Shown: positions 8,197 through 54,912, counted from the first letter of the stretch. The stretch: DNA of 64,000 bases from Candidatus Poribacteria bacterium (GCA_965215015.1 OZ244042.1:2976001-3040000), one strand, 5' to 3'. Notes: generated by a model not told the origin, from the sequence alone. Translations and numbers: made by a program.

Positions 8197-10377
8197 TTAT
8201 TGCGTCGCTTTGACCTCTCTCCGACGAGCGTGCAGCACAGGCTCAGTATAGCCGTTGGGCACCGTTCCTCCCTTAAAAACCAGATCTAGTGCTGCCTGAA
8301 AGGCGATGCTCTTGTCAAATTCGGGTGCCATGTTTCGATAGTTCGCATCCCCTGCATTCTGTCTGTCGACAACCGCAGCCATCCGCTCGAAGGTTTCTAT
8401 AATCTGTTTTCTCGTCACAACACCGTGATGTAGCCAGTTGGCAATATGCTGACTCGATATACGTAGCGTTGCCCGGTCCTCCATCAACCCGACGTCATGG
8501 ATGTCCGGCACCTTTGAGCAGCCAATTCCTTGATCAACCCAGCGCACCACATAGCCTAGTATTCCTTGGGCATTATTATCCAGTTCCTGCTGGATGTCCG
8601 CCTCTCCGAATTCACCATCCGATAATGGTGGTGTCAGAATATCCGACAGACTAGCACGCCCTCTGCTCGCCAGTTTTGTCTGCCTGCTTGCAACGCTCAC
8701 CTGATGATAATGTATGGCGTGGAGTGTAGCAGCCGTTGGCGAAGGTACCCAAGCAGTTGTCGCTCCGGCCTGGGGATGACCTATCTTTGTCTCGACCATG
8801 TCAGCCATTTCATCCGGCATCGCCCACATCCCTTTACCAATCTGTGCCTTACCGGGAAGCCCTGTCTCAATACCGATATCCACGTTCCAGTCCTCATAGG
8901 CGAGCATCCATGGCTGGCCTTTGATATCAGGCTTAGGTATCATCGGTCCCGCTTCCATACTTGTGTGGATTTCATCGCCAGTCCGATCCAGAAATCCGGT
9001 GTTGATAAACACAACCCGTTCTTTCGCTGCGCGGATGGCTTCTTTCAAGTTAATAGTGGTTCGACGCTCCTCATCCATAATCCCAATCTTCAACGTGTTT
9101 GGTTCAAGCCCAAGGGCGCGCTCGACCCGTTCAAACAGTTCAATCGTTGCTGCAGCTTCCTCAGGACCGTGCAGTTTTGGTTTGACGATGTAGATGCTGC
9201 CTGCCCGGCTGTTGACATATTTCCCATTTCTTTTAAGGTCGTGTATGGCTGCCAGCGATGTAACCATCGCATCAAGGAAACCTTCGGGAATATCCTGATC
9301 GTCTGCTGTGGTGACTGCATCGGTGTACATGTGAATCCCGACATTCCGAATCAGCAGAAGACTTCGCCCCGGGAGTGTTAGCGTTGCCCCGTCCGGCGTC
9401 TTAAAGGTCTTATCTGCATTTAGGCTTCGGGTCATTTGCTCCCCACTCTTCTCAAAGGTTGCTTCTAGCGTACCCTGCATGATGCCATTCCAGTTGCTGT
9501 AGACTTTTGTTTTGTCCTCCGCATCAACAGCGGAGACAGAATCTTCACAGTCCTGAATTGTCGTGATAGCAGATTCCAGCACCACATCTTTTACGCCTGC
9601 GGGATGGGCTTTGCCAACGGGATGATTGCGGTCAATTTGGATTTCAATGTGTAATCCATTATTTCTGAGCAAGACACCCGACAGTTCACCATCTTTTTCA
9701 TTAAATCCGGCAAATGTACTGGTGGCGGCTAAACCTACTTCGCTGCCATCCTTAAGTTTTGCGACCAATTGCCTAGTTCCATTAACATCTTTGAGTGAGA
9801 ATCGCGTGACTTCTGAGAACTTCCCTTGTTCAAGCCCCACCGCCTCATCTAAGAATGCCTCCGCTTGGGCGATGACCGCTGCGCCGCGCACAGGATTGTA
9901 CCCTTCACTCCTCTCCTTCCCGTCTTCATCGGAAATCACATTTGTGCCGTACAACGCATCATACAGACTCCCCCAGCGAGCATTGGCGGCATTCAGCGCG
10001 TAACGGGCGTTATCCACCGGCACCACCAGTTGTGGGCCGGAAACCTCTGCGATTTCGGGGTCTACATTCGCCGTGGTCGCTTGGAAATGTCCGCCTTCGG
10101 GGAGGAGATAACCAATCTCTGCAAGAAATTCCTCATATTCATTTGGATCGACCGGCTCGCCCTTTGTAGATAAATGCCATTCGTCAATCCGTTGCTGCAA
10201 TGCATCCCGTTTATCCAGAAGTGTCCGGTTTTTGGGCGCAAGATCTGTAACAATCTCACCTAGCGATGTCCAAAATGCATCCGCTTCCACACCTGTGCCG
10301 GGCACAATCTCGTCTTGTACCAGACGATACAATCCCTCGTCAATTTTGAGCTGACCAACTTCAATTCTATCTGCCAT
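8197..10377 (-). CDS. glcB: Malate synthase G
   Basis: [63 protein letters not shown]. Start placed at ATG 10377 after GGAGG. Confidence 0.97.
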
Positions 10378-42978: not shown

Positions 42979-44907
<1,929 letters not shown>

Positions 44908-44931
44908 CTATGTGGTAAGCAAACGTCGATC

Positions 44932-44968
44932 GAAAAAAAACCGCCTCCCTACATAAGGAAAACGGCTC
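44932..44968 (-). terminator. Expression-platform terminator of the TPP riboswitch (duplicate at ~48124-48160)
   Basis: Minus strand ccgttttcct-tatgt-agggaggcgg followed by tttttttt, in the thiC leader. Confidence 0.7.
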
Positions 44969-45014
44969 AACAATACAAGTCAGGAACAACGAACGTTGCT
45001 CTTTACTCTGAAAC

Positions 45015-45105
45015 TCATATTTCCCTACGCTGGTATTATCCAGATCAGGTCTAAAGGGTATATTCTCAGCTCTCCGGCTCAACCGGAGTGCACCCCAAAG
45101 CATGA
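45015..45105 (-). ncRNA. TPP riboswitch, copy 1, upstream of thiC
   Basis: Minus strand GGGGTGC...GCTGAGAATATACCCTTTAGACCTGATCTGGATAATACCAGCGTAGGGAA matches the THI-box consensus. Confidence 0.95.
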
Positions 45106-45186
45106 TAGCAATGGCGAATTTTCAGTTTCAGCTATTAAGGTATAGGCCGGCGCGTCCTTCTCTCGATGTCGTGAGAAACTGAAGGT

Positions 45187-46506
45187 TCACCGTTCTTCGT
45201 CTTCTTCCGAGGCATCTTCATCAGGACGTTGGGACGAGTAGCGTTCCCGATACGCCTCTGATTCCCGCCGAACCGCTTTATCGTCAGGGAAACGCTCCCT
45301 CGCCTGTCGGTAAACTGCTGCGGCTTTCTCATCTTCGCCCGTTTCTTGGTATGCCCGCGCCAACCTTAGATAACTCTCCGCCCGATTCGGACGAGATTCG
45401 ATAGAACGCTCTAGGTCTGCAAGCTGTCCCTCAACGGCAGCGGATGGGTCTGACGGGCTGCTTAGCGACGCTTCGTACTCTTCAATGATTTGAATCAGCT
45501 CCTCGATGGATCGTTGGTCTGCTGCGCTTGCTTCCCTGCTTTCGCTGGGCGGCGTGGAGTCTCCCGGCTCGTCATTAAGTCCGGTTTCACGACCAGTTCC
45601 TTCAGGCGGAGCCGGTGGGGGCTCTGCCTCCTGAAACGGTGATTCGGGAAACGTGTCTTCAGGAGCAGATTTTTCAGGCAATTGTCTCTGAGATTCACCT
45701 TGGATCCGCTTAAAGATAGGGTTTCCTGCCTCAATCGCTTGAATATGCATAAGAGACACTACAGGATGCCACCTACGAATGTCAAATCCAGGGGGAGGTA
45801 ACTTAGATCCCTTCTTATAAGCCGCTAATGCTTCATCATACATGCCCAATCTTTCGTAACTTTCACCTAAGGCACGATACGCCGAACCGTGCGACGGGTC
45901 TGCCGCAATAGCCGCTTTGAGATAGGGAATAGACTCCGCTGGCTGGGCGGTGTTGATTGTTGTTCCGAGTCCATACAGAACATCCACAGAAGTGGAATCC
46001 ATCTCGACCAATCGTCGAAAGATTGCTTCTCTTCCATTTTCTTCATCAGGAGGGAGCAGTTGACCCAGTAAGAGAAGTTCCTCAAAAGCCCCTGGATTTT
46101 CCGCCACCGCCTTCCGGGCATATTGCCGGGCGTAATCCAGAAACCCGCTTCTTTTCAACCCCTTGGCTGCGGTGAAGGAATCAACGCCTTCGACTATAGG
46201 CGCGATTATCTCCAACATCGGGTCTGTCCCCAAATCATCGGTAGGCGGAGAGGCGTCTAATGATGCTTCAGTAGTTCCATGTACAGAAACACCAGATTTC
46301 TGATTTGCACGAGCAGGCTGATCTGCTCCGGTTGAAAGTGAGGGTTCTGAAGGCGTTGTTTCCATTTCAGGTAGTGTTACTTCTCCTATCAGATTCTCGT
46401 CTTTGTCCAAAGTCGATGGTTGTCTATATAAGATAAAGAAAATTACCCCGAATACCGATAGAATTATGAGGGGTAGTGTCCAAATCCGTTGTAATTTTTG
46501 CATCAT
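45187..46506 (-). CDS. Membrane-anchored TPR protein, family A copy 1
   Basis: N-terminal TM helix, central TPRs (AYRALGESYERLGMYDEALAAYKK), Pro/Glu-rich linker, C-terminal TPR (ESYLRLARAY...AAAVYRQA). Confidence 0.8.
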   Translation of the reverse strand: MMQKLQRIWTLPLIILSVFGVIFFILYRQPSTLDKDENLIGEVTLPEMETTPSEPSLSTGADQPARANQKSGVSVHGTTEASLDASPPTDDLGTDPMLEIIAPIVEGVDSFTAAKGLKRSGFLDYARQYARKAVAENPGAFEELLLLGQLLPPDEENGREAIFRRLVEMDSTSVDVLYGLGTTINTAQPAESIPYLKAAIAADPSHGSAYRALGESYERLGMYDEALAAYKKGSKLPPPGFDIRRWHPVVSLMHIQAIEAGNPIFKRIQGESQRQLPEKSAPEDTFPESPFQEAEPPPAPPEGTGRETGLNDEPGDSTPPSESREASAADQRSIEELIQIIEEYEASLSSPSDPSAAVEGQLADLERSIESRPNRAESYLRLARAYQETGEDEKAAAVYRQARERFPDDKAVRRESEAYRERYSSQRPDEDASEEDEER

Positions 46507-46561
46507 TCAATTTTGACTAAGATTGACTATCGGGAAAATTCCAAAAACTCTGTTAATTCAA

Positions 46562-47401
46562 TCAGTTTTCCTCTTCATCAGAACGTTCTAGCAGACGTTC
46601 AGGCTCCGCCTCAAACTCTCGTTGAACTCGTTCATCTTCAGGGAAACGTTCCCTCGCCCGTCGGTAAACTGCTGCGGCTTTCTCATCTTCGCCCACTTTT
46701 TGGTATGCCCGCGCCAACCTTAGATAACTCTCCGCCCGATTGGGTCGGGATTCAATAGAACGCTCTAGGTCTGCAAGCCATCCCTCAACGATAGTGGATG
46801 GATCTGACTGGCTGCTTAGCGACGCTTCGTACTCTTCAATGATTTGAATCAGCTCCTCGATGGCTCGTTGGTCCGCTGCGGTTGCTTCTCCATCTTTGGG
46901 AGAAGGCGGTTCTTCAAAAAGCGATTCATCGAAGCCTGTTTTACGTTCCAAACCCGAAGGCGCGTCGGGAGTGGGAGGCGTATTTTCTTGCGGTGGTGGT
47001 TGAGGAGGCATTCCTTTGAAAGGAAGCTCTTTGGACTCTGGTGTTTCAGATGGCAACGGTTTTATGCGAGGATTCCCGGCTTCAATCGCTCGAATATGGG
47101 CGAGGGTCACCAGGCCTTGACTAATCTCAAAGGCTTTCTTATAGGACACCAACGCTTCATCATATCGCCCCATTCCCTCATAACTCTTCCCTAACACGTA
47201 ATGTGCTGTACTATCCGATGGATCTTCTGCAATAGCGGCTTCAAGATAGAAGGGCACTTCCTCAGGCAAGACCACTTCTGGAGAGGAGAGGCTGCCATTA
47301 TCCAAAGTGGGTTGGGGGCTCTTTAGGGAGAACAAAACCACTATGAATACAGCGAGTGCAGCGACAATAACTATCAAGATCAATCGGTGCTGGCGCATCA
47401 T
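46562..47401 (-). CDS. Membrane-anchored TPR protein, family B copy 1, with in-frame internal deletion
   Basis: Nearly identical to 49724-50999 but jumps from VLPE to FYLEAAIAEDP. Confidence 0.7.
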   Translation of the reverse strand: MMRQHRLILIVIVAALAVFIVVLFSLKSPQPTLDNGSLSSPEVVLPEEVPFYLEAAIAEDPSDSTAHYVLGKSYEGMGRYDEALVSYKKAFEISQGLVTLAHIRAIEAGNPRIKPLPSETPESKELPFKGMPPQPPPQENTPPTPDAPSGLERKTGFDESLFEEPPSPKDGEATAADQRAIEELIQIIEEYEASLSSQSDPSTIVEGWLADLERSIESRPNRAESYLRLARAYQKVGEDEKAAAVYRRARERFPEDERVQREFEAEPERLLERSDEEEN

Positions 47402-47709
47402 AATCTCTCCTTGTTAAATACCCCAACTTTCTGAGATAAACGGTTGTGCTAAAATAGGGCATAGCAGCAAGTGACTCCATAATCATTCCTAACATAACTA
47501 ATAAAATGCTAAACATCACTCGCTGTTGCATATTGATTCTTTCTTTAGCGTTTTAAGAACGGGTTATTGCCCATCAGCTTCACAGACACAAAATGCCATG
47601 ACATTGATGATAATAAAATAAATAAACCTAAAATGCAAGAAAAATTATACCATATTAGAATTTTTTGTGCCAATGAATTGTTTTAGCGTCTACCCATCCA
47701 TGGAGCTAT

Positions 47710-48087
47710 TTACAGAATCTCCAATTTAATCCCGACCAGTCGCCGAAAAGTTGCCTCCCTCTCATTTCCATCGTGAGGTAGCAATTGGCCCAATAAGAGA
47801 AGTGCTTCAAAAGATTCGGGGTTTTCCGCCACCGCCTTCCGGGCATATTGCCGGGCGTAATCCAGAAATCCGTTTCTTTTTAACCTTTTGGCTGCGGTGA
47901 AGGAATCAACGCCTTCGACTATAGGCGCAATTATCTCCAACATCGGGTCTATCCCAGAATCATCGGTAGGCGGAGAGGCGTCTAATGATGCTTCAGTAGT
48001 TCCGTGTACAGAAACATCGCCGTTGATACGATGCTTGGTAGGTTCTGTTGCCATCGTGTATCCCATGTGGTTGATGCCCGTCTTCAT
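47710..48087 (-). pseudogene. Chimeric truncated family-A TPR ORF starting at the duplicated thiC start codon
   Basis: A unique ~24-aa N-terminus, then VSVHGTTEASLDAS...REATFRRLVG, then stop. Uses the copied thiC RBS and ATG. Confidence 0.6.
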
Positions 48088-48206
48088 CGTCTCAACCTCC
48101 TATGTGGTAAGCAAACGTCGATCGAAAAAAAACCGCCTCCCTACATAAGGAAAACGGCTCAACAATACAAGTCAGGAACAACGAACGTTGCTCTTTACTC
48201 TGAAAC

Positions 48207-48297
48207 TCATATTTCCCTACGCTGGTATTATCCAGATCAGGTCTAAAGGGTATATTCTCAGCTCTCCGGCTCAACCGGAGTGCACCCCAAAGCATGA
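48207..48297 (-). ncRNA. TPP riboswitch, copy 2 (complete, with the whole thiC leader)
   Basis: Reads identically to copy 1 at offset 3192; identity runs down to the ATG. Confidence 0.92.
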
Positions 48298-48378
48298 TAG
48301 CAATGGCGAATTTTCAGTTTCAGCTATTAAGGTATAGGCCGGCGCGTCCTTCTCTCGATGTCGTGAGAAACTGAAGGT

Positions 48379-49668
48379 TCACCGTTCTTCGTCTTCTTCC
48401 GATGCATCTTCATCAGGACGTTGGGACGAGTAGCGTTCCCGATACGCCTCTGATTCCCGCTGAACCGCTTTATCGTCAGGGAAACGCTCCCTTGCCTGTC
48501 GATAAACTGCTGCGGCTTTCTCATCTTCGCCCGCTTCTTGGTATGCCCGCGCCAACCTTAGATAACTCTCCGCCCAATTCGGACGAGATTCGATAGAACG
48601 CTCTAGGTCTGCAAGACGTCCCTCAACGGCAGCGGATCGATCTGACTGGCTGCTTAGTGACGCTTCGTACTCTTCAATGATCTGAAGCAGCTCCTCGATG
48701 GCTCGTTGGTCCGCTGCGCTTGCTTCCCTGTTTTCGCTTGGCGGCGTGAAGTCTCCCGGCTCGTCATTAAATCGGGTGTCACGACCAGTTCCTTCAGGCG
48801 GAGCCGGTGGGGGCTCTGCCTCCTGAAACGGTGATTCGGGAAACGTGTCTTCAGGAGCGGCTTCTGCCGGCAATTGTTTCTGAAACTCACGCTGCAAGGG
48901 CTTAATAATCGGATTCCCAGATTCGATGGCTTGGATATACCTCAAAGTCCGGGGGCTATGACTAATATCATAAGCTATTTTATGAGCCGTTAATGCTTCA
49001 TCATACCTCCCTAGTCTTTGATAACTCTTGCCCAAGACGTGATACACAGGACGATACAACGGATCTGACTCAATGACGGCTTTGAGATAGGGAATAGCTT
49101 CTGCTGGCTTGCTGTAGGAGAGCGTTTGCCCGAGTCCATACAGGGCATCCACAGAAGTGGAATCCATCCCGACCAATCGCCGAAAAGTTGCCTCTCTCTC
49201 ATTTCCATCGTGAGATAGCAATTGAGCCAATAAAAGAAGTGCTTCAAAAGATTCGGGATTTTCTGCTACCGCCTTCCGGGCATATTGCCGGGCGTAATCC
49301 AGAAATCCGTTTCTTTTTAACCTTTTGGCTGCGGTGAAGGAATCAACGCCTTCGACTATAGGCGCAATTATCTCCAACATCGGGTCTATCCCAGAATCAT
49401 CGGTAGGCGAAGAGGCGTCTAATGATGCTTCAGTAGTTCCGTGTACAGAAACACCAGATTTCCGATTTGCACGGACAGTCTGATCCAACTTGCTTGAAAG
49501 TAGCTGTTCTGAAGGCTGACTTTCCATTTTAGGCACTGGAATTTCTTTTGTCAAATCCTTGCCCTTATCCAAAGTAGATGGTTGCCTATACAAGATAAAG
49601 AAAATTACCCCAAATACCGATAGAATTATGAGGGGTAGTGTCCAAATCGGTTGTAATTTTTGCATCAT
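48379..49668 (-). CDS. Membrane-anchored TPR protein, family A copy 2
   Basis: Same N- and C-termini as 45187-46506 with a different central TPR block. Confidence 0.8.
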   Translation of the reverse strand: MMQKLQPIWTLPLIILSVFGVIFFILYRQPSTLDKGKDLTKEIPVPKMESQPSEQLLSSKLDQTVRANRKSGVSVHGTTEASLDASSPTDDSGIDPMLEIIAPIVEGVDSFTAAKRLKRNGFLDYARQYARKAVAENPESFEALLLLAQLLSHDGNEREATFRRLVGMDSTSVDALYGLGQTLSYSKPAEAIPYLKAVIESDPLYRPVYHVLGKSYQRLGRYDEALTAHKIAYDISHSPRTLRYIQAIESGNPIIKPLQREFQKQLPAEAAPEDTFPESPFQEAEPPPAPPEGTGRDTRFNDEPGDFTPPSENREASAADQRAIEELLQIIEEYEASLSSQSDRSAAVEGRLADLERSIESRPNWAESYLRLARAYQEAGEDEKAAAVYRQARERFPDDKAVQRESEAYRERYSSQRPDEDASEEDEER

Positions 49669-49723
49669 TCAATTTTGACTAAGATTGACTATCGGGAAAA
49701 TTCCAAAAACTCTGTTAATTCAA

Positions 49724-50999
49724 TCAATTTTCTTCTTGATCGGAACGTTCTAGCGGACGTTCAGGCTCCGCCTCAAACGCCTCTGACTCTCGTTGAATTC
49801 GCTCATCTTCAGGGAAACGTTCCCTCGCCTGTCGGTAGACTGCTGCGGCTTTCTCATCTTCGCCCGTTTCTTGGTAAGCCCGCGCTAACCTTAAATAACT
49901 CTCCGCCGGATTCGGACGAGATTCGATAGAACGTTCTAGGTCTGCAAGCTGCCCCTCAGCTACAGCGACTGAGTCTGACTTGCTCATTAGCTGAGCTTCG
50001 TATTCTTCGATGATCTGAATCAGCTCCTCGATGGCTTGTTGGTCCGCTGCGGCTGCTTCGCCATCTTTAGGGAGAAGGCAGTTCTTCGAGAAGCGATTCA
50101 TCGAAGCCTGTTTTACGTTCCAAACCCGAAGGCGCGTTGGGAATGGGAGGCGTATTTTCTTGCGGTGGTGCTTGAGGAGGTATTCCTTTAAAAGGAAGCT
50201 CTTTGGACTCTGGTGTTTCAGATGGCAACGGTTTTATGCGAGGATTCCCGGCTTCAATCGCTCGAATATGGGCGAGGGTCACCAGGCCTTGACTAATCTC
50301 AAAGGCTTTCTTATAGGACACCAACGCTTCATCATATCGCCCCATTCCCTCATAACTCTTCCCTAACACGTAATGTGCTGTACTATCCGATGGATCTTCT
50401 GCAATAGCGGCTTCAAGATAGAAGGCCGCTTCTCGTGGTTGATTATTAATCCTGAGTGTTTGTCCCAGTCCATATAATGCCTCGACAGAGGTCGGGTCTG
50501 TTTCAACTAATCGCCGGAAAATTGCTTGTCTCTCATCTCCTTCGTGAGGAAGAAGTTTTCCCAATAACAGCAGTGCTTCAAAAGAATCTGGATTTTCTGC
50601 TACAGCCAGCCGTGCATATTCTCGGGCGTAATTCCATTCACCTGCTTCTCTGAGTTTCTTGGCTACGCTCAACGGAGACTCCCCCTTGAACAAGGACGCT
50701 AATCTTTCTCGTTCAAGATTTGTTGTCCTCTCACCAACGAGAGGGGAAGTCGATTTTGACGTTTCGATAACTGTATCTGCAGAAACACGAGATCCCCGGT
50801 TTGTACTTGAATTTGCTCGGTTATTTTTTACCGACCGCGTTGACAGCTCAACTTCCATTTCAGGCAAGACCATTTCTGGAGAGGAGAGGCTGCCATTGTC
50901 CAAAGTGGATTGGGGGCTCTTTAGGGAGAACAAAACCACTATGAATACAACGAGTGCAGCGACAAGAACTATTAAAATCAATCGGTGCTGGCGCATCAT
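49724..50999 (-). pseudogene. Family-B TPR protein copy 2, frameshifted
   Basis: An extra T (tct ccc taa aga versus tct ccc aaa gat in copy 1) at ~50069 splits it into ORFs 50067-50999 and 49724-50101. Confidence 0.75.
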
Positions 51000-51134
51000 A
51001 ATCTCTCCTTCTTAAATACCTCAATTTTCCGAGATAAACGGTTGTGCTAAAATAGGGCATAGCAGCAAGTGATTCCATTTAACCAGAAGGGGTGATGCGT
51101 CCGCGTGAGACAGATTACACCCCTGGTGAGAAGG

Positions 51135-51816
51135 CTAATCTTCTCTGAGTTTGTACCCCTGAAAGTTGGTCGCATGATCCGATCCATAGTTATCACTACG
51201 GGCTGCGGGCAGTATCAATATATCCATAATGCATGAATTATGGGTACAGTGAGTTAGGTTGATGGTATGGCCTATCTCATGACCAACGACGTTCTTTCTT
51301 GCTGCAGCTCGATCCGATTGCGAACTATATAGGTTATCGATTCCAAGGGTATAGATAAAACAGTCCCTAACTTCATTAGGGATATATTCATCTGGCTCCT
51401 CGGCTGGAATTGGCCAACCTATGTAAAAGGTAAAACCAAGATTATCTGGATTCTCCGTAATGTTATCCTCTAACACTTTTACTACTTTCTGAGAGCGGTG
51501 TCCGGGCACATCAGTTCCCTTGAAATTCACGAAGTAGTTCGGATAACCTGAGTGTTCATTAGAGTCAATTGGACGGGGACGTATCTCACTTGGTAGATTA
51601 CTTGCATCTCCTATACCAGTTAGACTGCCAGTAGTATTAACATTTATCAATAGATCTTTCTTTGAGGGATCTAGTCGGTCGTGACTTCCCTCCATTATAA
51701 ACCCCCGATATTCCGTAAAAACAGAGAAGTTGTCGCCATCATGAATATTACTTCCTGGGCCCTCTTCATCGTCAGCAGACGCATTATAGTTTTCCAACTC
51801 ATCATTGTTCCACCCA
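51135..51816 (-). pseudogene. C-terminal fragment of a zinc metallopeptidase-domain protein, 5'-truncated
   Basis: DGDNFSVFTEYRGF...DPSKKDLLI and VVGHEIGHTINLTHC...CIM (HExxH plus third His and Met-turn). No start of its own; joined to TPR copy A3. Confidence 0.65.
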
Positions 51817-52766
51817 GTTCTCGCTTGGCGGCGTGAAGTCTCCCGGCTCGTCATTAAATCCTGTTTCACGACTAGTTCCTTCAGGCGGAGCCGGTGGGGG
51901 CTCTGCCTCCTGAAACGGTGATCCGGGAAACGTGTCTTCAGGAGCAGATTCTTTAGGCAATTGTTTCTGAAACTCACGTTGGATCGGCTTAAAGATAGGG
52001 TTTCCTGCCTCAATCGCTTGAATATGCATAAGAGGTACTGTAGGATGCCACCTACGAATATCAACTCCAGGGGGAGGCAACTTACAACTCTTCTTAAAAG
52101 CCGCTAATGCTTCATCATACATGCCTAGTCTTTCATAGCTCTTTCCCAAATTGTGATACGCCGAACCGTGCGACGGGTCTGCCGCAATGGCAGCTTTGAG
52201 ATAGGAGATAGCCTCTGCCGGCTGGTCATAGTAGATTGTTACTCCCAGGCCATATAATACATCCACAGAGACTGGATTCATGTCAAACAATCGTCGAAAG
52301 ATGGCTTCTCTTCCATTTTCTTCATCAAGAGGGAGCAGTTGACCCAATAAGAGAAGTTCCTCAAAAGCCCCTGGATTTTCCGCCACCGCCTTCCGGGCAT
52401 ATTGCCGGGCGTAATCCAGAAATCCGTTTCTTTTCAACCCCTTGGCTGCGGTGAAGGAATCAACGCCTTCGACTATAGGCGTAATTATCTCCAACATCGG
52501 GTCTATTGCAGAATCATCGGTAGGCGGAGAGGCGTCTAATGATGCTTCAGTAGTTCCGTGTACAGAAACACCAGATTTCCGATTTGCACGGGTAGGCTGA
52601 TCTGCTCCGGTTGAAAGTGAGTGCTCTGAAGGCATTGTTTCCATTTCAGGCGGTGTTACTTCTCCTATCAGATTCTCGTCTTCGTCCAAAGTCAATGGTT
52701 GTCTATACAAGATAAAGAAAATTACTCCGAATACCGATAGAATTATGAGGGGTAGCGTCCAAATCT
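51802..52766 (-). pseudogene. Family-A TPR protein copy 3, lacking its native start and C-terminal TPR
   Basis: Begins at IWTLPLIILS, joined to the end of copy 4; ends at TPPSEN fused to the peptidase fragment. Confidence 0.7.
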
Positions 52767-53917
52767 GATTCCCGCCGAACCGCTTTATCCTCAGGGAAAC
52801 GCTCCCTCGCCTGTCGGTAAACTGCTGCGGCTTTCTCATCTTCGCCCACTTTTTGGTATGCCCGCGCCAACCTTAGATAACTCTCTGCCCGATTCGGACG
52901 AGATTCGATAGAACGCTCTAGGTCTGCAAGCCGTCCCTCAACGATAGTGGATGGATCTGACGGGCTGCTTAGCGACGCTTCGTATTCTTCAATGATTTGA
53001 ATCAGCTCCTCGATGGCTCGTTGGTCCGCTGCGCTTACTTCCCTGTTTTCGCTTGGCGGCGTGAAGTCTCCCGGCTCGTCATTAAATCCGGTTTCATGAC
53101 CAGTTCCTTCAGGCGGAGCCGGTGGGGGCTCTGCCTCCTGAAACGTTTCTTCAGGAGCAGATTCTTCAGGCAATTGTTTCTGAAACTCACGTTGGATCGG
53201 CTTAAAGATAGGGTTTCCTGCCTCAATCGCTTGAATATGCATAAGAGGTACTGTAGGATGCCACCTACGAATGTCAAATCCAGGGGGAGGCAACTTAGAT
53301 CCCTTCTTATAAGCCGCTAATGCTTCATCATACATGCCCAATCTTTCGTAACTTCCACCTAAGGCACGATACGCCGAACCGTGCGACGGGTCTGCCGCAA
53401 TCGCCGCTTTGAGATAGGGAATAGACTCCGCTGGCTGGTCGGTATTGATTGTTGTTCCGAGTCCATACAGGGCATCCACAGAAGTCGAATCCATCCTGAC
53501 CAATCGTCGAAAGAGGGCTTCTCTTCCATTTTCTTCATCAAGAGGGAGCAATTGAGCCAAGAAGAGAAGTTCCTCAAAAGCCCCTGGATTTTCCGCCACC
53601 GCCTTCCGGGCATATTGCCGGGCGTAATCCGGAAATCCGTTTCTTTTTAACCTTTTGGCTGCGGTGAAGGAATCAACGCCTTCGACTATAGGCGCAATTA
53701 TCTCCAACATCGGGTCTGTCCCCAAATCATCGGTAGGCGGAGAGGCGTCTAATGATGCTTCAGTAGTTCCGTGTACAGAAACATCAAATTTCTGATTTGC
53801 ACGAGCAGGCTGATCTGCTCCAGTAGATGGGTATCTATACAAGATAAAGAAAATTACCCCGAATATCGCTAGAATTATGAAGGGTAGCGTCCAAATCCGT
53901 TGTAATTCTTGCATCAT
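52703..53917 (-). CDS. Membrane-anchored TPR protein, family A copy 4, with altered tail
   Basis: Full TM-TPR-linker-TPR architecture; after AVRRES it reads into copy 3 out of frame. Confidence 0.75.
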   Translation of the reverse strand: MMQELQRIWTLPFIILAIFGVIFFILYRYPSTGADQPARANQKFDVSVHGTTEASLDASPPTDDLGTDPMLEIIAPIVEGVDSFTAAKRLKRNGFPDYARQYARKAVAENPGAFEELLFLAQLLPLDEENGREALFRRLVRMDSTSVDALYGLGTTINTDQPAESIPYLKAAIAADPSHGSAYRALGGSYERLGMYDEALAAYKKGSKLPPPGFDIRRWHPTVPLMHIQAIEAGNPIFKPIQREFQKQLPEESAPEETFQEAEPPPAPPEGTGHETGFNDEPGDFTPPSENREVSAADQRAIEELIQIIEEYEASLSSPSDPSTIVEGRLADLERSIESRPNRAESYLRLARAYQKVGEDEKAAAVYRQARERFPEDKAVRRESDLDATPHNSIGIRSNFLYLV

Positions 53918-53973
53918 TTACCCCATGGTAGGTCAAACCTATCTTATTTTGTATCCATTTAAGTTGACAGCGT

Positions 53974-54072
53974 GCTGGTATTATCCAGATCAGGTCTAAA
54001 GGGTATATTCTCAGCTCTCCGGCTCAACCGGAGTGCACCCCAAAGCATGATAGCAATGGCGAATTTTCAGTT
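53974..54072 (-). repeat. 99-bp direct repeat: 3'-truncated TPP riboswitch, copy 3
   Basis: Reads identically to 45029-45127 and 48221-48319; lacks the GTAGGGAA and P1 3' strand. Confidence 0.9.
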
Positions 54073-54084
54073 CCTGCTCACAGT

Positions 54085-54912
54085 TCACGCCTCCAGCTTC
54101 CACTCATCACCAAGGATAACCTCTAGTTGGTCATGCGGCTTGAAGTAATCGGTCGGGTGATAATTTTCACCCATGTATCCGAACAAGCGCTTCCGACGAG
54201 GTGTCATTCGCTCCAGCACATGCGGCGGCAGGGTCTCGTAATCGTAGGGACGGCTCCACATCTGGCCGTAACGGAAGGTGACACTCTTACGAATCTGATC
54301 GGTTTTATTCGGTCCAACCGAGTGCCACTGTGCCCATGGAAAGATGACAGCATCGCCCGGTTCGGCAAGCACTTGAATCGCTCCTTCTGGGAGAAATTCC
54401 GGTTCCGGGTGTTCAGGGAAAGGTTTTCGGTGACTGCCCGGCACTAGCATGAAATTCGCGCTGTCCGGCTGCGATACATCGGTCAGGAAAAACTGAACCT
54501 TAAATTGCAGCGGGAGGCTTTGGGGGTGGGGGTGAATCTGTTGTAGCGAAGGGCCGGCATCCGTATGGAAACCCAGCAAAGGGGCATCGCTGGGATGTCG
54601 AGTGTAGATTTGCGTCCCCATAATCTGGAGGTAGGGCCCCATTAATGCGAGAATCGTTCCAAAGATGTTGGGATGGTCTGTCAAGAGGTCCAGCGCATCC
54701 GTTCTTTCAATCGCCCGAATGATGGTGAAAGCTCCTTGGCCAAACTGGGGAGCATCCGAACTATACTGTTCCCGAACATAGGCTTCAATAACCGGATCGA
54801 CAGCGTCCAAAAGAGTGTGGACCTCTTCGGGGGACAGCACCTGTTTCACAATGAGATAGCCTTGTTCATCCCAGTGTTTGCGTTGCTCCTCTGTCAAGTA
54901 TCCGTTTACCAT
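54085..54912 (-). CDS. Phytanoyl-CoA dioxygenase (PhyH) family Fe/2OG enzyme
   Basis: WDEQGYL, FHTD (HxD), LVPGSH, PGDAVIF..WHSV..N. Confidence 0.88.
   Translation of the reverse strand: MVNGYLTEEQRKHWDEQGYLIVKQVLSPEEVHTLLDAVDPVIEAYVREQYSSDAPQFGQGAFTIIRAIERTDALDLLTDHPNIFGTILALMGPYLQIMGTQIYTRHPSDAPLLGFHTDAGPSLQQIHPHPQSLPLQFKVQFFLTDVSQPDSANFMLVPGSHRKPFPEHPEPEFLPEGAIQVLAEPGDAVIFPWAQWHSVGPNKTDQIRKSVTFRYGQMWSRPYDYETLPPHVLERMTPRRKRLFGYMGENYHPTDYFKPHDQLEVILGDEWKLEA

Follow-up and report, generated by a model that had tools for sequence, protein, structure and literature searches.

The window that we analyzed is a 64,000-nt stretch of DNA from Candidatus Poribacteria bacterium (GCA_965215015.1 OZ244042.1:2976001-3040000; coordinates count from its first nucleotide), whose genome is assembled as a single 5.94-Mb contig. 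Between thiC and a phyH-family dioxygenase gene, it holds an array of TPR genes interspersed with DNA of the riboswitch-bearing thiC leader, arranged as follows:

42979..44895, minus strand: thiC (638 aa), the native riboswitch-controlled gene (Pfam ThiC_Rad_SAM, E 7e-187; protein 93-96% identical in 18 genus-mates)
44896..45167, minus strand: native thiC leader, with its aptamer at 45005-45107 (RF00059, 62.1 bits)
44938-44968, minus strand: terminator-like hairpin of the native leader
45102-45131, minus strand: promoter-like site of the native leader
45134-45167, minus strand: native upstream DNA, ~35 nt, which aligns with G022 as far as 45167
45187..46506, minus strand: TPR-A copy 4, intact, 439 aa, a hydrophobic N-terminal anchor followed by TPR repeats (Pfam TPR; 86% identical to the paralog at 5726104-5727402)
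46562..47401, minus strand: TPR-B copy 2, 279 aa, ~435 nt shorter than the 367-aa paralog (47252-45252 matches 5728156-5726148, and 47480-47264 matches 5728807-5728591)
47481..47728, minus strand: unassigned filler of ~250 nt, with a weak match of 47610-47652 to DNA immediately 3' of phyH in G022 (81% identity across 43 nt; E ~1e-5, from a small search space)
47710..48087, minus strand: chimeric ORF, 125 aa, made of the thiC ATG, an SDR remnant (48084 to ~48014, codons 163-186) and a TPR-A fragment (48016-47729), all in frame
48085..48402, minus strand: second complete thiC leader, with aptamer (48197-48299), terminator (48130-48160), RBS and ATG
48379..49668, minus strand: TPR-A copy 3, intact, 429 aa (Pfam; 79% identical to copy 4)
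49724..50999, minus strand: TPR-B copy 1, split by a frameshift into ORFs 50067-50999 and 49724-50101 (Pfam; collinear with the paralog)
51165..51812, minus strand: unique 650-nt stretch for which neither the genome nor the relatives' loci hold a DNA relative; it belongs to a 309-aa ORF that has a weak metallopeptidase-like motif
51813..52765, minus strand: TPR-A copy 2, 5' fragment only, ~950 nt (90.7% to 5726430-5727382)
52703..53917, minus strand: TPR-A copy 1, a 3'-truncated 404-aa ORF (Pfam) with an out-of-frame joint to copy 2 at ~52766-52770
53918..53973, minus strand: 56-nt leader between the truncated riboswitch and the start codon of TPR-A copy 1, with no other genomic copy
53974..54078, minus strand: truncated riboswitch, made up of the 5' part of the aptamer and promoter-proximal DNA (33 bits), its -35-like hexamer changed at 2 nt
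54085..54912, minus strand: phyH-family dioxygenase gene, the left anchor (Pfam PhyH; orthologs 89-93% identical in 18 genus-mates)

A sequence-only reading had described this locus as a TPR island bracketed by a duplicated TPP riboswitch. The direct repeat behind that description is real: a k-mer chain recovered an exact 99-bp match (45029-45127 = 53974-54072), which extends to 105 bp at 98% identity (45029-45133 = 53974-54078) and covers, as had been stated, the 5' portion (~80 nt, minus strand) of the TPP aptamer of thiC, together with promoter-proximal DNA. The phyH-side copy had likewise been recognized correctly as cut and the thiC-side copy as complete. The former breaks off after ...TAATACCAGC, 1 nt past the P5 hairpin, so that it lacks a terminator as well as the P4 and P1 3' strands, and scores 33 bits against the Rfam TPP riboswitch model (RF00059, gathering threshold 54.3 bits), compared to 62.1 bits over model positions 1-105 for the latter. 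However, the genome search for other copies of the 99-mer that had been proposed yielded three riboswitch copies, not two. The third, a complete aptamer with the same score and model coverage, lies in the middle of the array in a 318-bp block (48085-48402 = 44893-45210, 100% identity) that also carries the terminator hairpin, the RBS and the thiC ATG; the repeat is therefore no simple bracket around the array. The thiC site is the sole TPP riboswitch locus of the genome. Both full units show the same joint between a TPR tail and native upstream DNA, ~60 nt upstream of the aptamer, which suggests that the first TPR entry may have left the riboswitch uncut. The aptamer part can be aligned in 18 of 18 genus-mates, and the 35 nt 5' of the thiC copy only with G022. 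The phyH-side copy has lost its native left flank and adjoins the phyH stop codon across ~12 nt of filler, rather than native upstream DNA, so it need not have been made at the first insertion.

For comparison we used the 18 genus-mates that have the thiC locus, leaving out G013, where it was not found. All 18 share the order phyH, SDR gene (252 aa), spacer, riboswitch and thiC, none has TPR genes there, and the relatives' DNA departs from that of the present genome within a few nt past the phyH stop codon. Since the TPR genes are absent from the locus in each of these genus-mates, this comparison of genomes supports the view that the 8.8-kb TPR array between phyH and thiC is a lineage-specific insertion. 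The empty site anticipated by the sequence-only reading thus exists insofar as TPR genes are concerned, but it contains an SDR gene, and the expectation that removal of the interval would restore a simple phyH-riboswitch-thiC locus does not hold: deleting the array does not give back the ancestral locus, as the relatives' SDR gene is absent here. Only ~70 nt of it is left, which we found by tblastn with the relatives' SDR and by DNA comparison, in frame directly behind the ATG of the middle riboswitch; its DNA is 82-93% identical to the SDR gene of 19 of 19 relatives (86-93% in 17 of the 18 genus-mates).

The TPR cargo has a close relative elsewhere in the genome. A two-gene unit, TPR-B plus TPR-A, lies intact between sodA and ilvB at 5.726 Mb, 2.7 Mb away; array positions 48444-51164 are collinear with 5726148-5728893 at 85.6% identity (51164 pairs with 5728893), other array copies are 90-91% identical to this resident unit, and the cargo is paralogous to it at 86-91% identity. 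The two units of the array match each other in a mosaic fashion, with identity of 45-100% per 100 nt, the pattern expected from gene conversion. The claim that the interval lacks an integrase stands: TPR families are the only Pfam matches among the array ORFs of at least 80 aa, and no recombinase was found in the 9 array and 6 flanking ORFs of that size scanned at the thiC locus. The genome-wide search for integrases that had been suggested returned 11 matches to the tyrosine recombinase family PF00589, the nearest more than 110 kb from the array, and 0 matches each to PF00239 (serine recombinase), RVT_1 and Ku. Microhomology could be read at two joints only, those with an identifiable donor: the ATG/SDR163 joint has 1 nt in common and the SDR186/TPR-A joint has ATGT. 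The filler behind the middle ATG is assembled from pieces of SDR, TPR-A and spacer DNA.

The same fast-evolving TPR family occupies other sites in this genome. At tRNA-Leu(CAG), a 1.6-kb TPR insert is flanked by an 84-bp duplication of the 5' half of the tRNA, which begins at the promoter -10 and stops 1 nt beyond the anticodon hairpin; all 18 readable genus-mates have an empty site there. At the nuo promoter, which is single copy in 10 of 11 inspected relatives, a 51-bp duplication flanks a 5.85-kb insert with TPR and a type IIG RM gene (Eco57I/MmeI-like). In both cases the long target duplication is clean, with both copies aligning to the relatives' single copy. Between sodA and ilvB, the TPR pair stands in place of 63 nt without a duplication, and a T-box leader follows 28 nt downstream of its end; of 19 genus-mates, 18 have an empty site here and G003 has a remnant. 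Considering that the genome has only 2 T-box leaders and 49 tRNA genes, and that 3 of the 4 reconstructed TPR sites lie in or beside a riboswitch, a T-box leader or a tRNA gene, the recurrence of one family at such RNA sites looks either targeted or strongly selected. Two other repeat-flanked loci that we examined are dispersed repeats rather than long target duplications, so such insertions may not be general in this genome.

On balance, we lean towards the interpretation that the locus is a copy-paste recombination scar and not an island for which the riboswitch served as attachment site. Copies of the lineage-specific two-gene TPR unit would have entered just upstream of the thiC leader via illegitimate, microhomology-guided recombination, most likely by replicative template switching (compare Hastings et al. 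2009, PMC2621351) after a replication fork stalled at the hairpin-rich transcribed leader. A TPR block together with the whole leader would then have been tandemly duplicated, giving rise to the second complete riboswitch, whose ATG became joined to a patchwork drawn from SDR, TPR-A and spacer sequence. The SDR gene of the ancestral locus would have been deleted, and the TPR copies would have kept swapping blocks through gene conversion. The order of these events and the capture of a promoter are steps that we infer. Homologous duplication, which the sequence-only reading had kept as a fallback, comes nearer the mark than its main proposal, although these joints are of the illegitimate rather than the homologous kind. 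Because the riboswitch DNA was duplicated, thiC retains an intact, TPP-controlled leader, and the truncated copy puts a terminator-less promoter-proximal segment ahead of the first TPR gene.

Among known systems, insertion with long target duplication followed by tandem duplication matches the locus best, rather than site-specific integration like that of tRNA islands. Such insertions (Nobusato et al. 2000, Gene 259:99; Furuta, Abe and Kobayashi 2010, NAR 38:2428, PMC2853133) involve, according to the latter paper, variable direct duplications of more than 30 bp around inserts without mobility genes; the repeats often span gene starts or stops, the target survives, and amplification may follow. 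The criteria given there include an insert under 20 kb, missing from a relative whose flanks align; a direct duplication of more than 30 bp with both copies alignable to the single copy of the empty-site genome; no other mobile-element gene; and, for its screen, RM genes in the cargo. Here, the inserts at thiC (8.8 kb), tRNA-Leu (1.6 kb) and nuo (5.85 kb) are all below 20 kb and have empty relatives, and no other mobile-element gene was found in the insert. The likeness extends to the empty site in relatives, the variable duplications of more than 30 bp (clean at tRNA-Leu and nuo), the lack of an integrase or transposase, repeats that cross functional boundaries, a target that stays intact and the possibility of amplification, and at nuo also to the type IIG RM gene. 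There are also differences: RM genes occur in the nuo insert only, and the cargo of the tRNA-Leu and thiC inserts is TPR without them; what was targeted is the 5' portion of a riboswitch in one case and of a tRNA in another, along with promoters; thiC is not a clean case, a neighbour gene having been deleted there; and the internal full leader stems from an illegitimate tandem joint instead of crossing-over between flanking repeats.

Two further comparisons bear on how the array itself may have been shaped. Tandem paralog arrays evolve through unequal crossing-over and gene conversion, and the array resembles them in the mosaic identity of its TPR units and its mixture of intact, truncated and frameshifted copies, although such a process alone does not explain arrival at thiC, tRNA-Leu and nuo. 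The FoSTeS/MMBIR model of replicative template switching was reportedly made for human CNV and E. coli amplification. The locus is like its products in mixing duplication, deletion and short templated filler, in the 1-4 nt of microhomology (two joints read) and in the retained donor-like copy, but the model does not predict one recurrent cargo family. Random template switching leaves unexplained why one family is the cargo four times, and why 3 of 4 sites lie at rare RNA elements.

Within the recombination-scar interpretation, the truncated copy itself may represent either the original target duplication or the leftover of a third tandem unit. The latter, in which more TPR DNA and a deletion up to the phyH stop codon cut the third unit down to a stump, we regard as possible but the less probable course. 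With the shared TPR-tail joint of the full units ~60 nt upstream of the aptamer, it needs no cut in the riboswitch at first entry; tandem duplication of the whole leader demonstrably happened; the truncated copy is 100% identical to the full copies over 99 bp; and TGAAAC, which occurs both in the phyH stop region of the relatives and at the start of the repeat, could have guided the deletion. Against this, at least 2 additional events are required, and the clean cases at tRNA-Leu and nuo are 5' target duplications made in one step.

Alternatively, a dedicated insertion mechanism may target transcribed, hairpin-forming 5' regions (riboswitch, tRNA, T-box and strong promoters) through staggered breaks 50-140 nt apart and thereby trap a copy of the promoter. 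It would account for one family having inserted four times, for cargo orientation that always equals that of the target, and for 3 of 4 sites falling at RNA elements, which by a rough estimate make up about 1-2% of intergenic regions; moreover, the two breakpoints that fall inside an RNA each come 1 nt after the 3' side of a hairpin arm, P5 in the aptamer and the anticodon stem in the tRNA. A possible further case is found in another genus, where G021 has TPR between 68-bp promoter copies, but this repeat has 4 weaker copies elsewhere in G021 and there is no empty site for comparison. No candidate enzyme was found, the cassette ends are unconserved, the duplications differ in length (51, 84 and 105 bp), and the sodA-ilvB insertion replaced 63 nt without any duplication. 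Selection alone could also suffice, if the survivors are those insertions that spared an essential RNA and were expressed. We therefore consider this mechanism rather improbable, and offer only as speculation the wider proposal that this membrane-anchored TPR family of a symbiont lineage spreads as recombinase-free cassettes, preferentially into the hairpin feet of transcribed 5' RNA elements, duplicating 50-140 nt of the target. If true, each insertion would spare the essential RNA while giving the cargo a captured promoter, amounting to a structure- or transcription-guided "promoter-trap" form of gene mobility, and the sites would form a natural series from which the mechanism behind insertions with long target duplication could be worked out.

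Much less likely is a non-autonomous island that integrated site-specifically into the TPP riboswitch, with its recombinase acting in trans or since lost and the 105-bp repeats as attL and attR. The geometry of tRNA-targeting islands, to which the sequence-only reading had appealed, is seen in part: the order of truncated 5' copy, cargo and complete RNA recurs at tRNA-Leu(CAG), a tRNA gene with the same cargo family, and at nuo. In addition, the insertion is lineage-specific, and the 11 tyrosine recombinase genes could work in trans. As in integrase-borne tRNA and tmRNA islands, a structured RNA gene is split with one complete copy beside the cargo; an integrase-borne element in a small-RNA gene is exemplified by the attB site in ffs (PMC12540744). 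Those islands, however, have an integrase in or beside them, a duplicated 3' part of the RNA and a fixed att core, none of which is present here. The usual tRNA att site, according to PMC2853133, starts at the anticodon loop and extends through the 3' end, and the insert contains an integrase, whereas the part duplicated here is the 5' part plus promoter. None of the three inserts contains a recombinase; their duplicated segments (105 bp at thiC, 84 bp at tRNA-Leu, 51 bp at nuo) are unrelated in sequence and share no common core; and no conserved element ends were found, the cassette ends differing between the three loci. A full riboswitch within the supposed island, microhomology at the joints, and an SDR gene that is present in the empty site, lost here and represented by a piece inside the array, argue further against the riboswitch as a site-specific attachment site.

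Finally, that the extra riboswitch copies are mis-joins is barely credible: the region does contain identical 318-bp blocks and numerous TPR repeats, which interrupt short-read contigs, but the genome is in one contig and Logan contigs (X1 and X5, from studies P1 and P2) bridge the joint between phyH and the truncated riboswitch (reaching 36 nt into the repeat and more than 200 nt into phyH) as well as, in 770-nt contigs from both, the two flanks of the unique 650-nt stretch. The long-range order of the array is beyond proof by short contigs. An X5 contig over the middle leader and the ATG/SDR joint shows 6 differences at 48091-48107, and at the matching, contig-covered thiC-side positions no variant is present in X5 among the differences listed; the two full copies are therefore separate loci.

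The TPR array between phyH and thiC is bracketed by duplicated riboswitch DNA. A k-mer scan recovered the exact 99-bp direct repeat that the sequence-only reading had reported (45029-45127 and 53974-54072), and the match extends to 105 bp at 98% identity; on the minus strand the order is phyH (54912-54085), repeat, TPR genes, repeat, thiC (44895-42979). That reading's distinction between a complete TPP aptamer beside thiC and a cut one beside phyH also held, with Rfam scores of 62.1 and 33 bits, respectively, against a cut-off of 54.3 bits for the TPP riboswitch. The last letters of the phyH-side copy (...TAATACCAGC) lie 1 nt past the 3' arm of the P5 hairpin. This truncated copy retains a -10 region with TG, has an altered -35-like hexamer and is without a terminator. 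The genome as a whole contains exactly three riboswitch copies: the two previously claimed and one, overlooked until now, in the middle of the array. The latter lies within a block (48085-48402) that is 100% identical to the thiC leader (44893-45210), taking in a terminator-like hairpin, RBS and ATG, and is referred to here as the middle leader. The two complete aptamers are:

45005-45107, minus strand, complete TPP aptamer on the thiC side (Rfam, 62.1 bits)
48197-48299, minus strand, complete TPP aptamer of the middle leader (Rfam, 62.1 bits)

The genome is a single 5.94-Mb contig, and the region is present in Logan contigs of four sequencing runs from four studies, which are short and therefore informative on joints, not on long-range order. 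Contigs of two of these runs (X1 and X5) span the joint between phyH and the truncated copy, as well as both flanks of a unique 650-nt stretch of the array. The X5 strain has 6 differences in the middle leader (48091-48107); none of the X5 differences listed falls at the corresponding positions on the thiC side, for which there is also an X5 contig. Because the listed differences concern the middle leader and not the thiC side, the two full copies are separate loci. Contigs of X1, X5 and another run, X8, also contain a joint from 46765 back to 45426, with 14 additional letters, that the assembly lacks and that may represent a paralog elsewhere or an alternative form of the array in the population.

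For the comparison with relatives, we considered up to 20 kb downstream of phyH in 18 genus-mates and in two genomes from other genera (G022 and G024). Orthologs of phyH (89-93% identical) were found in 18 of the 19 genus-mates; for the remaining one (G013, 88% completeness), the search gave paralogs only. All 18 share the order phyH, an ORF of 252-301 aa, a variable spacer, riboswitch, thiC and the same two downstream genes, and none has a TPR gene at this locus. Thus the phyH-thiC neighbourhood is old, and the TPR array is a lineage-specific insertion, in keeping with what had been proposed from the sequence. The further proposal that excision would restore a simple phyH-riboswitch-thiC locus failed: the intervening ORF, identified in the genus-mate locus L037 (252 aa) as a short-chain dehydrogenase gene (SDR; Pfam adh_short_C2, 2.6e-61), is gone here, so removal of the interval does not yield the relatives' locus. 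The SDR-riboswitch spacer is a variable spot across the genus, measuring ~275 to 1300 bp and holding small ORFs. Only a few nt from the phyH stop, the relatives' DNA already departs from that of this genome. For the stretch preceding the thiC aptamer (45099-45167), no alignment was obtained with the 18 genus-mates, whose common stretch holds TTGACT...TAACAT; this DNA does align, as far as 45167, with G022, where phyH is followed by 436 bp, the riboswitch and thiC, without an SDR gene.

In Pfam, the ORFs of the array match TPR alone, save one with a weak metallopeptidase-like motif, and the array is built from copies of a two-gene unit, TPR-B plus TPR-A. Its ORFs are:

45187-46506, minus strand, intact TPR-A
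46562-47401, minus strand, TPR-B with internal deletion
47710-48087, minus strand, chimeric 125-aa ORF of ATG, SDR remnant and TPR-A fragment (joint sequences)
48379-49668, minus strand, intact TPR-A
49724-50999, minus strand, TPR-B with frameshift
51135-52064, 309-aa ORF with weak Peptidase_M54-like motif (E 3e-4)
51813-52765, minus strand, 5' fragment of TPR-A
52703-53917, minus strand, 3'-truncated TPR-A, fused to the 51813-52765 fragment

The 309-aa ORF crosses the 650-nt stretch, which is without a DNA relative in the genome. The array has a slightly reduced GC content (44-52%, against 51-54% in its flanks). A resident TPR-B plus TPR-A unit, located between sodA and ilvBNC (genome 5726027-5728893), is collinear with 48444-51164 at 85.6% identity and 90-91% identical to other array copies. 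The two array units resemble each other in a mosaic fashion, with 45-100% identity per 100 nt, as would be expected from gene conversion among paralogs. The TPR family is narrow, with 21 close relatives among 5.8 billion protein clusters and matches in 1 of 19 genus-mates (G003, a remnant) and in a few genomes of sister genera; searches of genome contigs and metagenome contigs found no TPR-A relatives.

Part of the SDR gene persists inside the array. With a relative's SDR as query, tblastn gave one odd match of 33 residues (48090-47992), and the corresponding remnant of ~70 nt (48084 to about 48014) is 82-93% identical to the SDR genes of all 19 relatives compared (18 genus-mates and G024; 86-93% for 17 of the 18 genus-mates). 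This remnant starts right behind the middle-leader ATG and continues in frame into a 288-nt TPR-A fragment, with joint microhomology to the donors of 1 nt (ATG/AAG) and 4 nt (ATGT). Within the 250 nt past the TPR-A fragment of this chimeric ORF, 43 nt weakly match the DNA that follows phyH in G022. In the ancestral order the SDR gene is upstream of the riboswitch, and its piece now lies downstream of a riboswitch copy; such a displacement is the mark of a joint formed by tandem duplication, with templated filler, and not of integration.

The same TPR family occupies other sites. At tRNA-Leu(CAG) (genome 5.712 Mb), an 84-bp segment, spanning the -10 of the tRNA promoter to 1 nt beyond the anticodon stem, is present in two copies (88% identical): the left copy, which has the native TTGACA...TAGACT promoter and ends as a dead half-tRNA, is followed by a 1.6-kb insert with a frameshifted TPR gene and then by the complete tRNA. 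All 18 genus-mates that could be read have an empty site, the promoter abutting the complete tRNA; one further locus was left out because it ran past the end of its contig. The dead half-tRNA copy (L058:6441-6524) has four changes, all to A (three G>A, one C>A). The nuo operon (0.997 Mb) has a 5.85-kb insert containing a TPR gene and a 1093-aa type IIG restriction-modification (RM) gene, framed by two copies (96% identical) of 51 bp from the nuo promoter, and a single copy aligning to both repeats marks the empty site in 10 of the 11 relatives inspected, G003 differing. Between sodA and ilvB, the TPR pair stands in place of 63 nt of spacer present in the relatives, with no duplication, and its end lies 28 nt before a T-box leader (101.8 bits), one of only two in the genome (5725773-5726031, or L057:6774-7032, heading ilvBNC; and 3194677-3194937). 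This site is empty in 18 of 19 genus-mates; the other, G003, has TPR remnants there (L087, G003:C1:3020741-3024487), so this insertion seems older than those at thiC, tRNA-Leu and nuo. The head of the tRNA-Leu cassette has a 24-nt match to a nuo-type promoter motif, a hint that cassettes may carry along pieces of earlier targets. The promoter-like motif TTGACA-N-CTTTCAAAATGTGAG has four occurrences:

L104:2660-2700 and 8555-8600, nuo promoter and its duplicate
L058:6520-6555, heading the tRNA-Leu TPR cassette
L105:1150-1230 (genome about 3041194), 1.2 kb past the right end of the window

In a genome of another genus (G021, locus L239), two 68-bp promoter copies flank a TPR gene, with a methyltransferase gene downstream; this case is only suggestive, because the 68-bp repeat has 4 weaker copies in that genome and there is no empty-site relative. 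The repeat pair at L240 is 79% identical, and no flanking target repeat was detected at L238, L241, L242 or L243 at the settings used. Rfam searches of this genome's TPR loci at 0.997, 1.660 and 2.780 Mb, and of six loci in G021, G022 and G041, gave no RNA element.

Taken against the empty sites, the footprint of these insertions, with direct target duplications of tens to hundreds of bp that are variable in length and unrelated in sequence, no mobility gene and a target left functional, best fits insertion with long target duplication. Passages of PMC2853133 describe such insertions with RM genes as cargo, first in Helicobacter and then across many bacteria, citing an earlier description (Nobusato et al. 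2000), and state that the repeats permit amplification; the common property offered there is double-strand breakage only. The nuo case fits this class fully, the tRNA-Leu case fits except for RM cargo, and the thiC locus is a worn, multi-event version. The class as such is poorly understood. Of the sequence-only interpretation, what holds is that the thiC array is an insertion confined to this lineage and accompanied by duplication of riboswitch DNA; the observation behind it is borne out in part.

At the thiC locus, we infer at least four events. In the first, a TPR-B/TPR-A unit would have entered upstream of the leader; the joint of TPR tail and native upstream DNA (~45168) is identical in both units and therefore formed once. 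As this joint common to both units lies 60 nt upstream of the aptamer, the first entry may have left the riboswitch uncut. The second would be a tandem duplication carrying the full leader, its new joint consisting of the ATG and patchwork filler; the third, loss of the SDR gene and its spacer; and the fourth, placement beside phyH of the truncated leader, an unassigned 56-nt leader and two broken TPR-A copies. The truncated copy could be a duplication of the target made at the original insertion, like the one at tRNA-Leu, or else what is left of a third unit. As mechanism we propose replicative template switching (the MMBIR/FoSTeS model, PMC2621351); it is favoured because of the microhomology, the filler from nearby templates, the mix of duplication, deletion and replacement, and the retained donors. 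None of the alternatives (a recombinase, a transposase, retroposition, Ku-dependent joining) appears to account for these features as well. In the two RNA genes that were broken internally, aptamer and tRNA-Leu, the breakpoint falls 1 nt beyond a hairpin arm, which, in a sample of two, would suit stalling at structured, heavily transcribed DNA.

Template switching leaves two features unexplained, the one recurrent cargo family and the RNA-element sites. Of the four reconstructed sites, three lie at RNA elements: the sole TPP riboswitch locus, a T-box leader (the genome has only two) and a tRNA gene (of 49); such elements make up perhaps 1-2% of intergenic regions (a rough estimate), and in this post hoc comparison the coincidence is unlikely to be due to chance. 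Selection may do much of the work, with insertions surviving only if the essential RNA was rebuilt, and with expression from the captured promoter in addition. A dedicated mechanism, guided by structure or transcription, seems to us improbable, and is retained because the cargo family is the same each time and the RNA-element sites are unlikely by chance. The riboswitch-specific attachment site of the sequence-only reading, conceived as an analogue of tRNA-targeting islands, is made very unlikely by the tandem-joint signature of the SDR piece, the SDR-containing empty site and the lack of a recombinase: as that reading had stated for the interval, Pfam searches on ORFs of at least 80 aa in the array and in 4 kb on either side found none, the nearest of 11 tyrosine recombinase matches in the genome lies >110 kb away, and the whole genome has no serine recombinase match. 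Among the titles and abstracts listed in our literature search, none describes a riboswitch as insertion or attachment site, and such a paper may exist. Retroposition was set aside (0 RVT_1 reverse transcriptase matches genome-wide; promoter DNA heads the tRNA-Leu cassette), as were Ku-dependent end joining (0 Ku matches genome-wide) and, despite three cas1 genes, none of them at the array, Cas1-type integration, the duplications being of variable length (51 to 105 bp).

The thiC leader itself appears to stay intact. Through the middle leader, TPP control could extend to the chimeric ORF and perhaps to the TPR genes that follow it, and the truncated copy, if active, would drive TPR-A copy 1 without TPP control. 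Scans for promoters and terminators gave overall no excess over shuffled controls, so promoter capture is argued from sequence identity with the thiC leader only. With a second complete TPP riboswitch heading a chimeric ORF and a terminator-less stump heading a TPR gene, the locus illustrates one way in which riboswitches multiply, and a plausible route for new genes into, or out of, metabolite control. In addition, several independent events with one non-RM cargo family, one of them with an RM gene too, and with empty sites in up to 18 relatives, form a natural series in which accidents of repair or replication might be told apart from targeted insertion. If this organism is a sponge symbiont, the way in which TPR "eukaryotic-like" proteins multiply would be of interest, since they are considered important in host interaction (PMC13747020).

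Candidates with non-TPR cargo were collected by a genome-wide k-mer scan for isolated direct repeats combined with ORF filtering. No clean long target duplication was found among the three loci examined (L244, L246 and L249 lay outside the comparison with relatives): the PD40 locus is a paralog array, L247 is a dispersed element of about 170 bp, and the RM locus at 4.098 Mb is ruled out by a 144-bp tandem array. The ~170-bp element (L247:4237-4405, genome about 5671236-5671404) has >20 copies in the genome, 78-92% identical. The array of ~144-bp units (L248:590-1450, genome 4098089-4098951) immediately precedes a type IIG RM gene of 1054 aa, and a further ~144-bp copy follows that gene.
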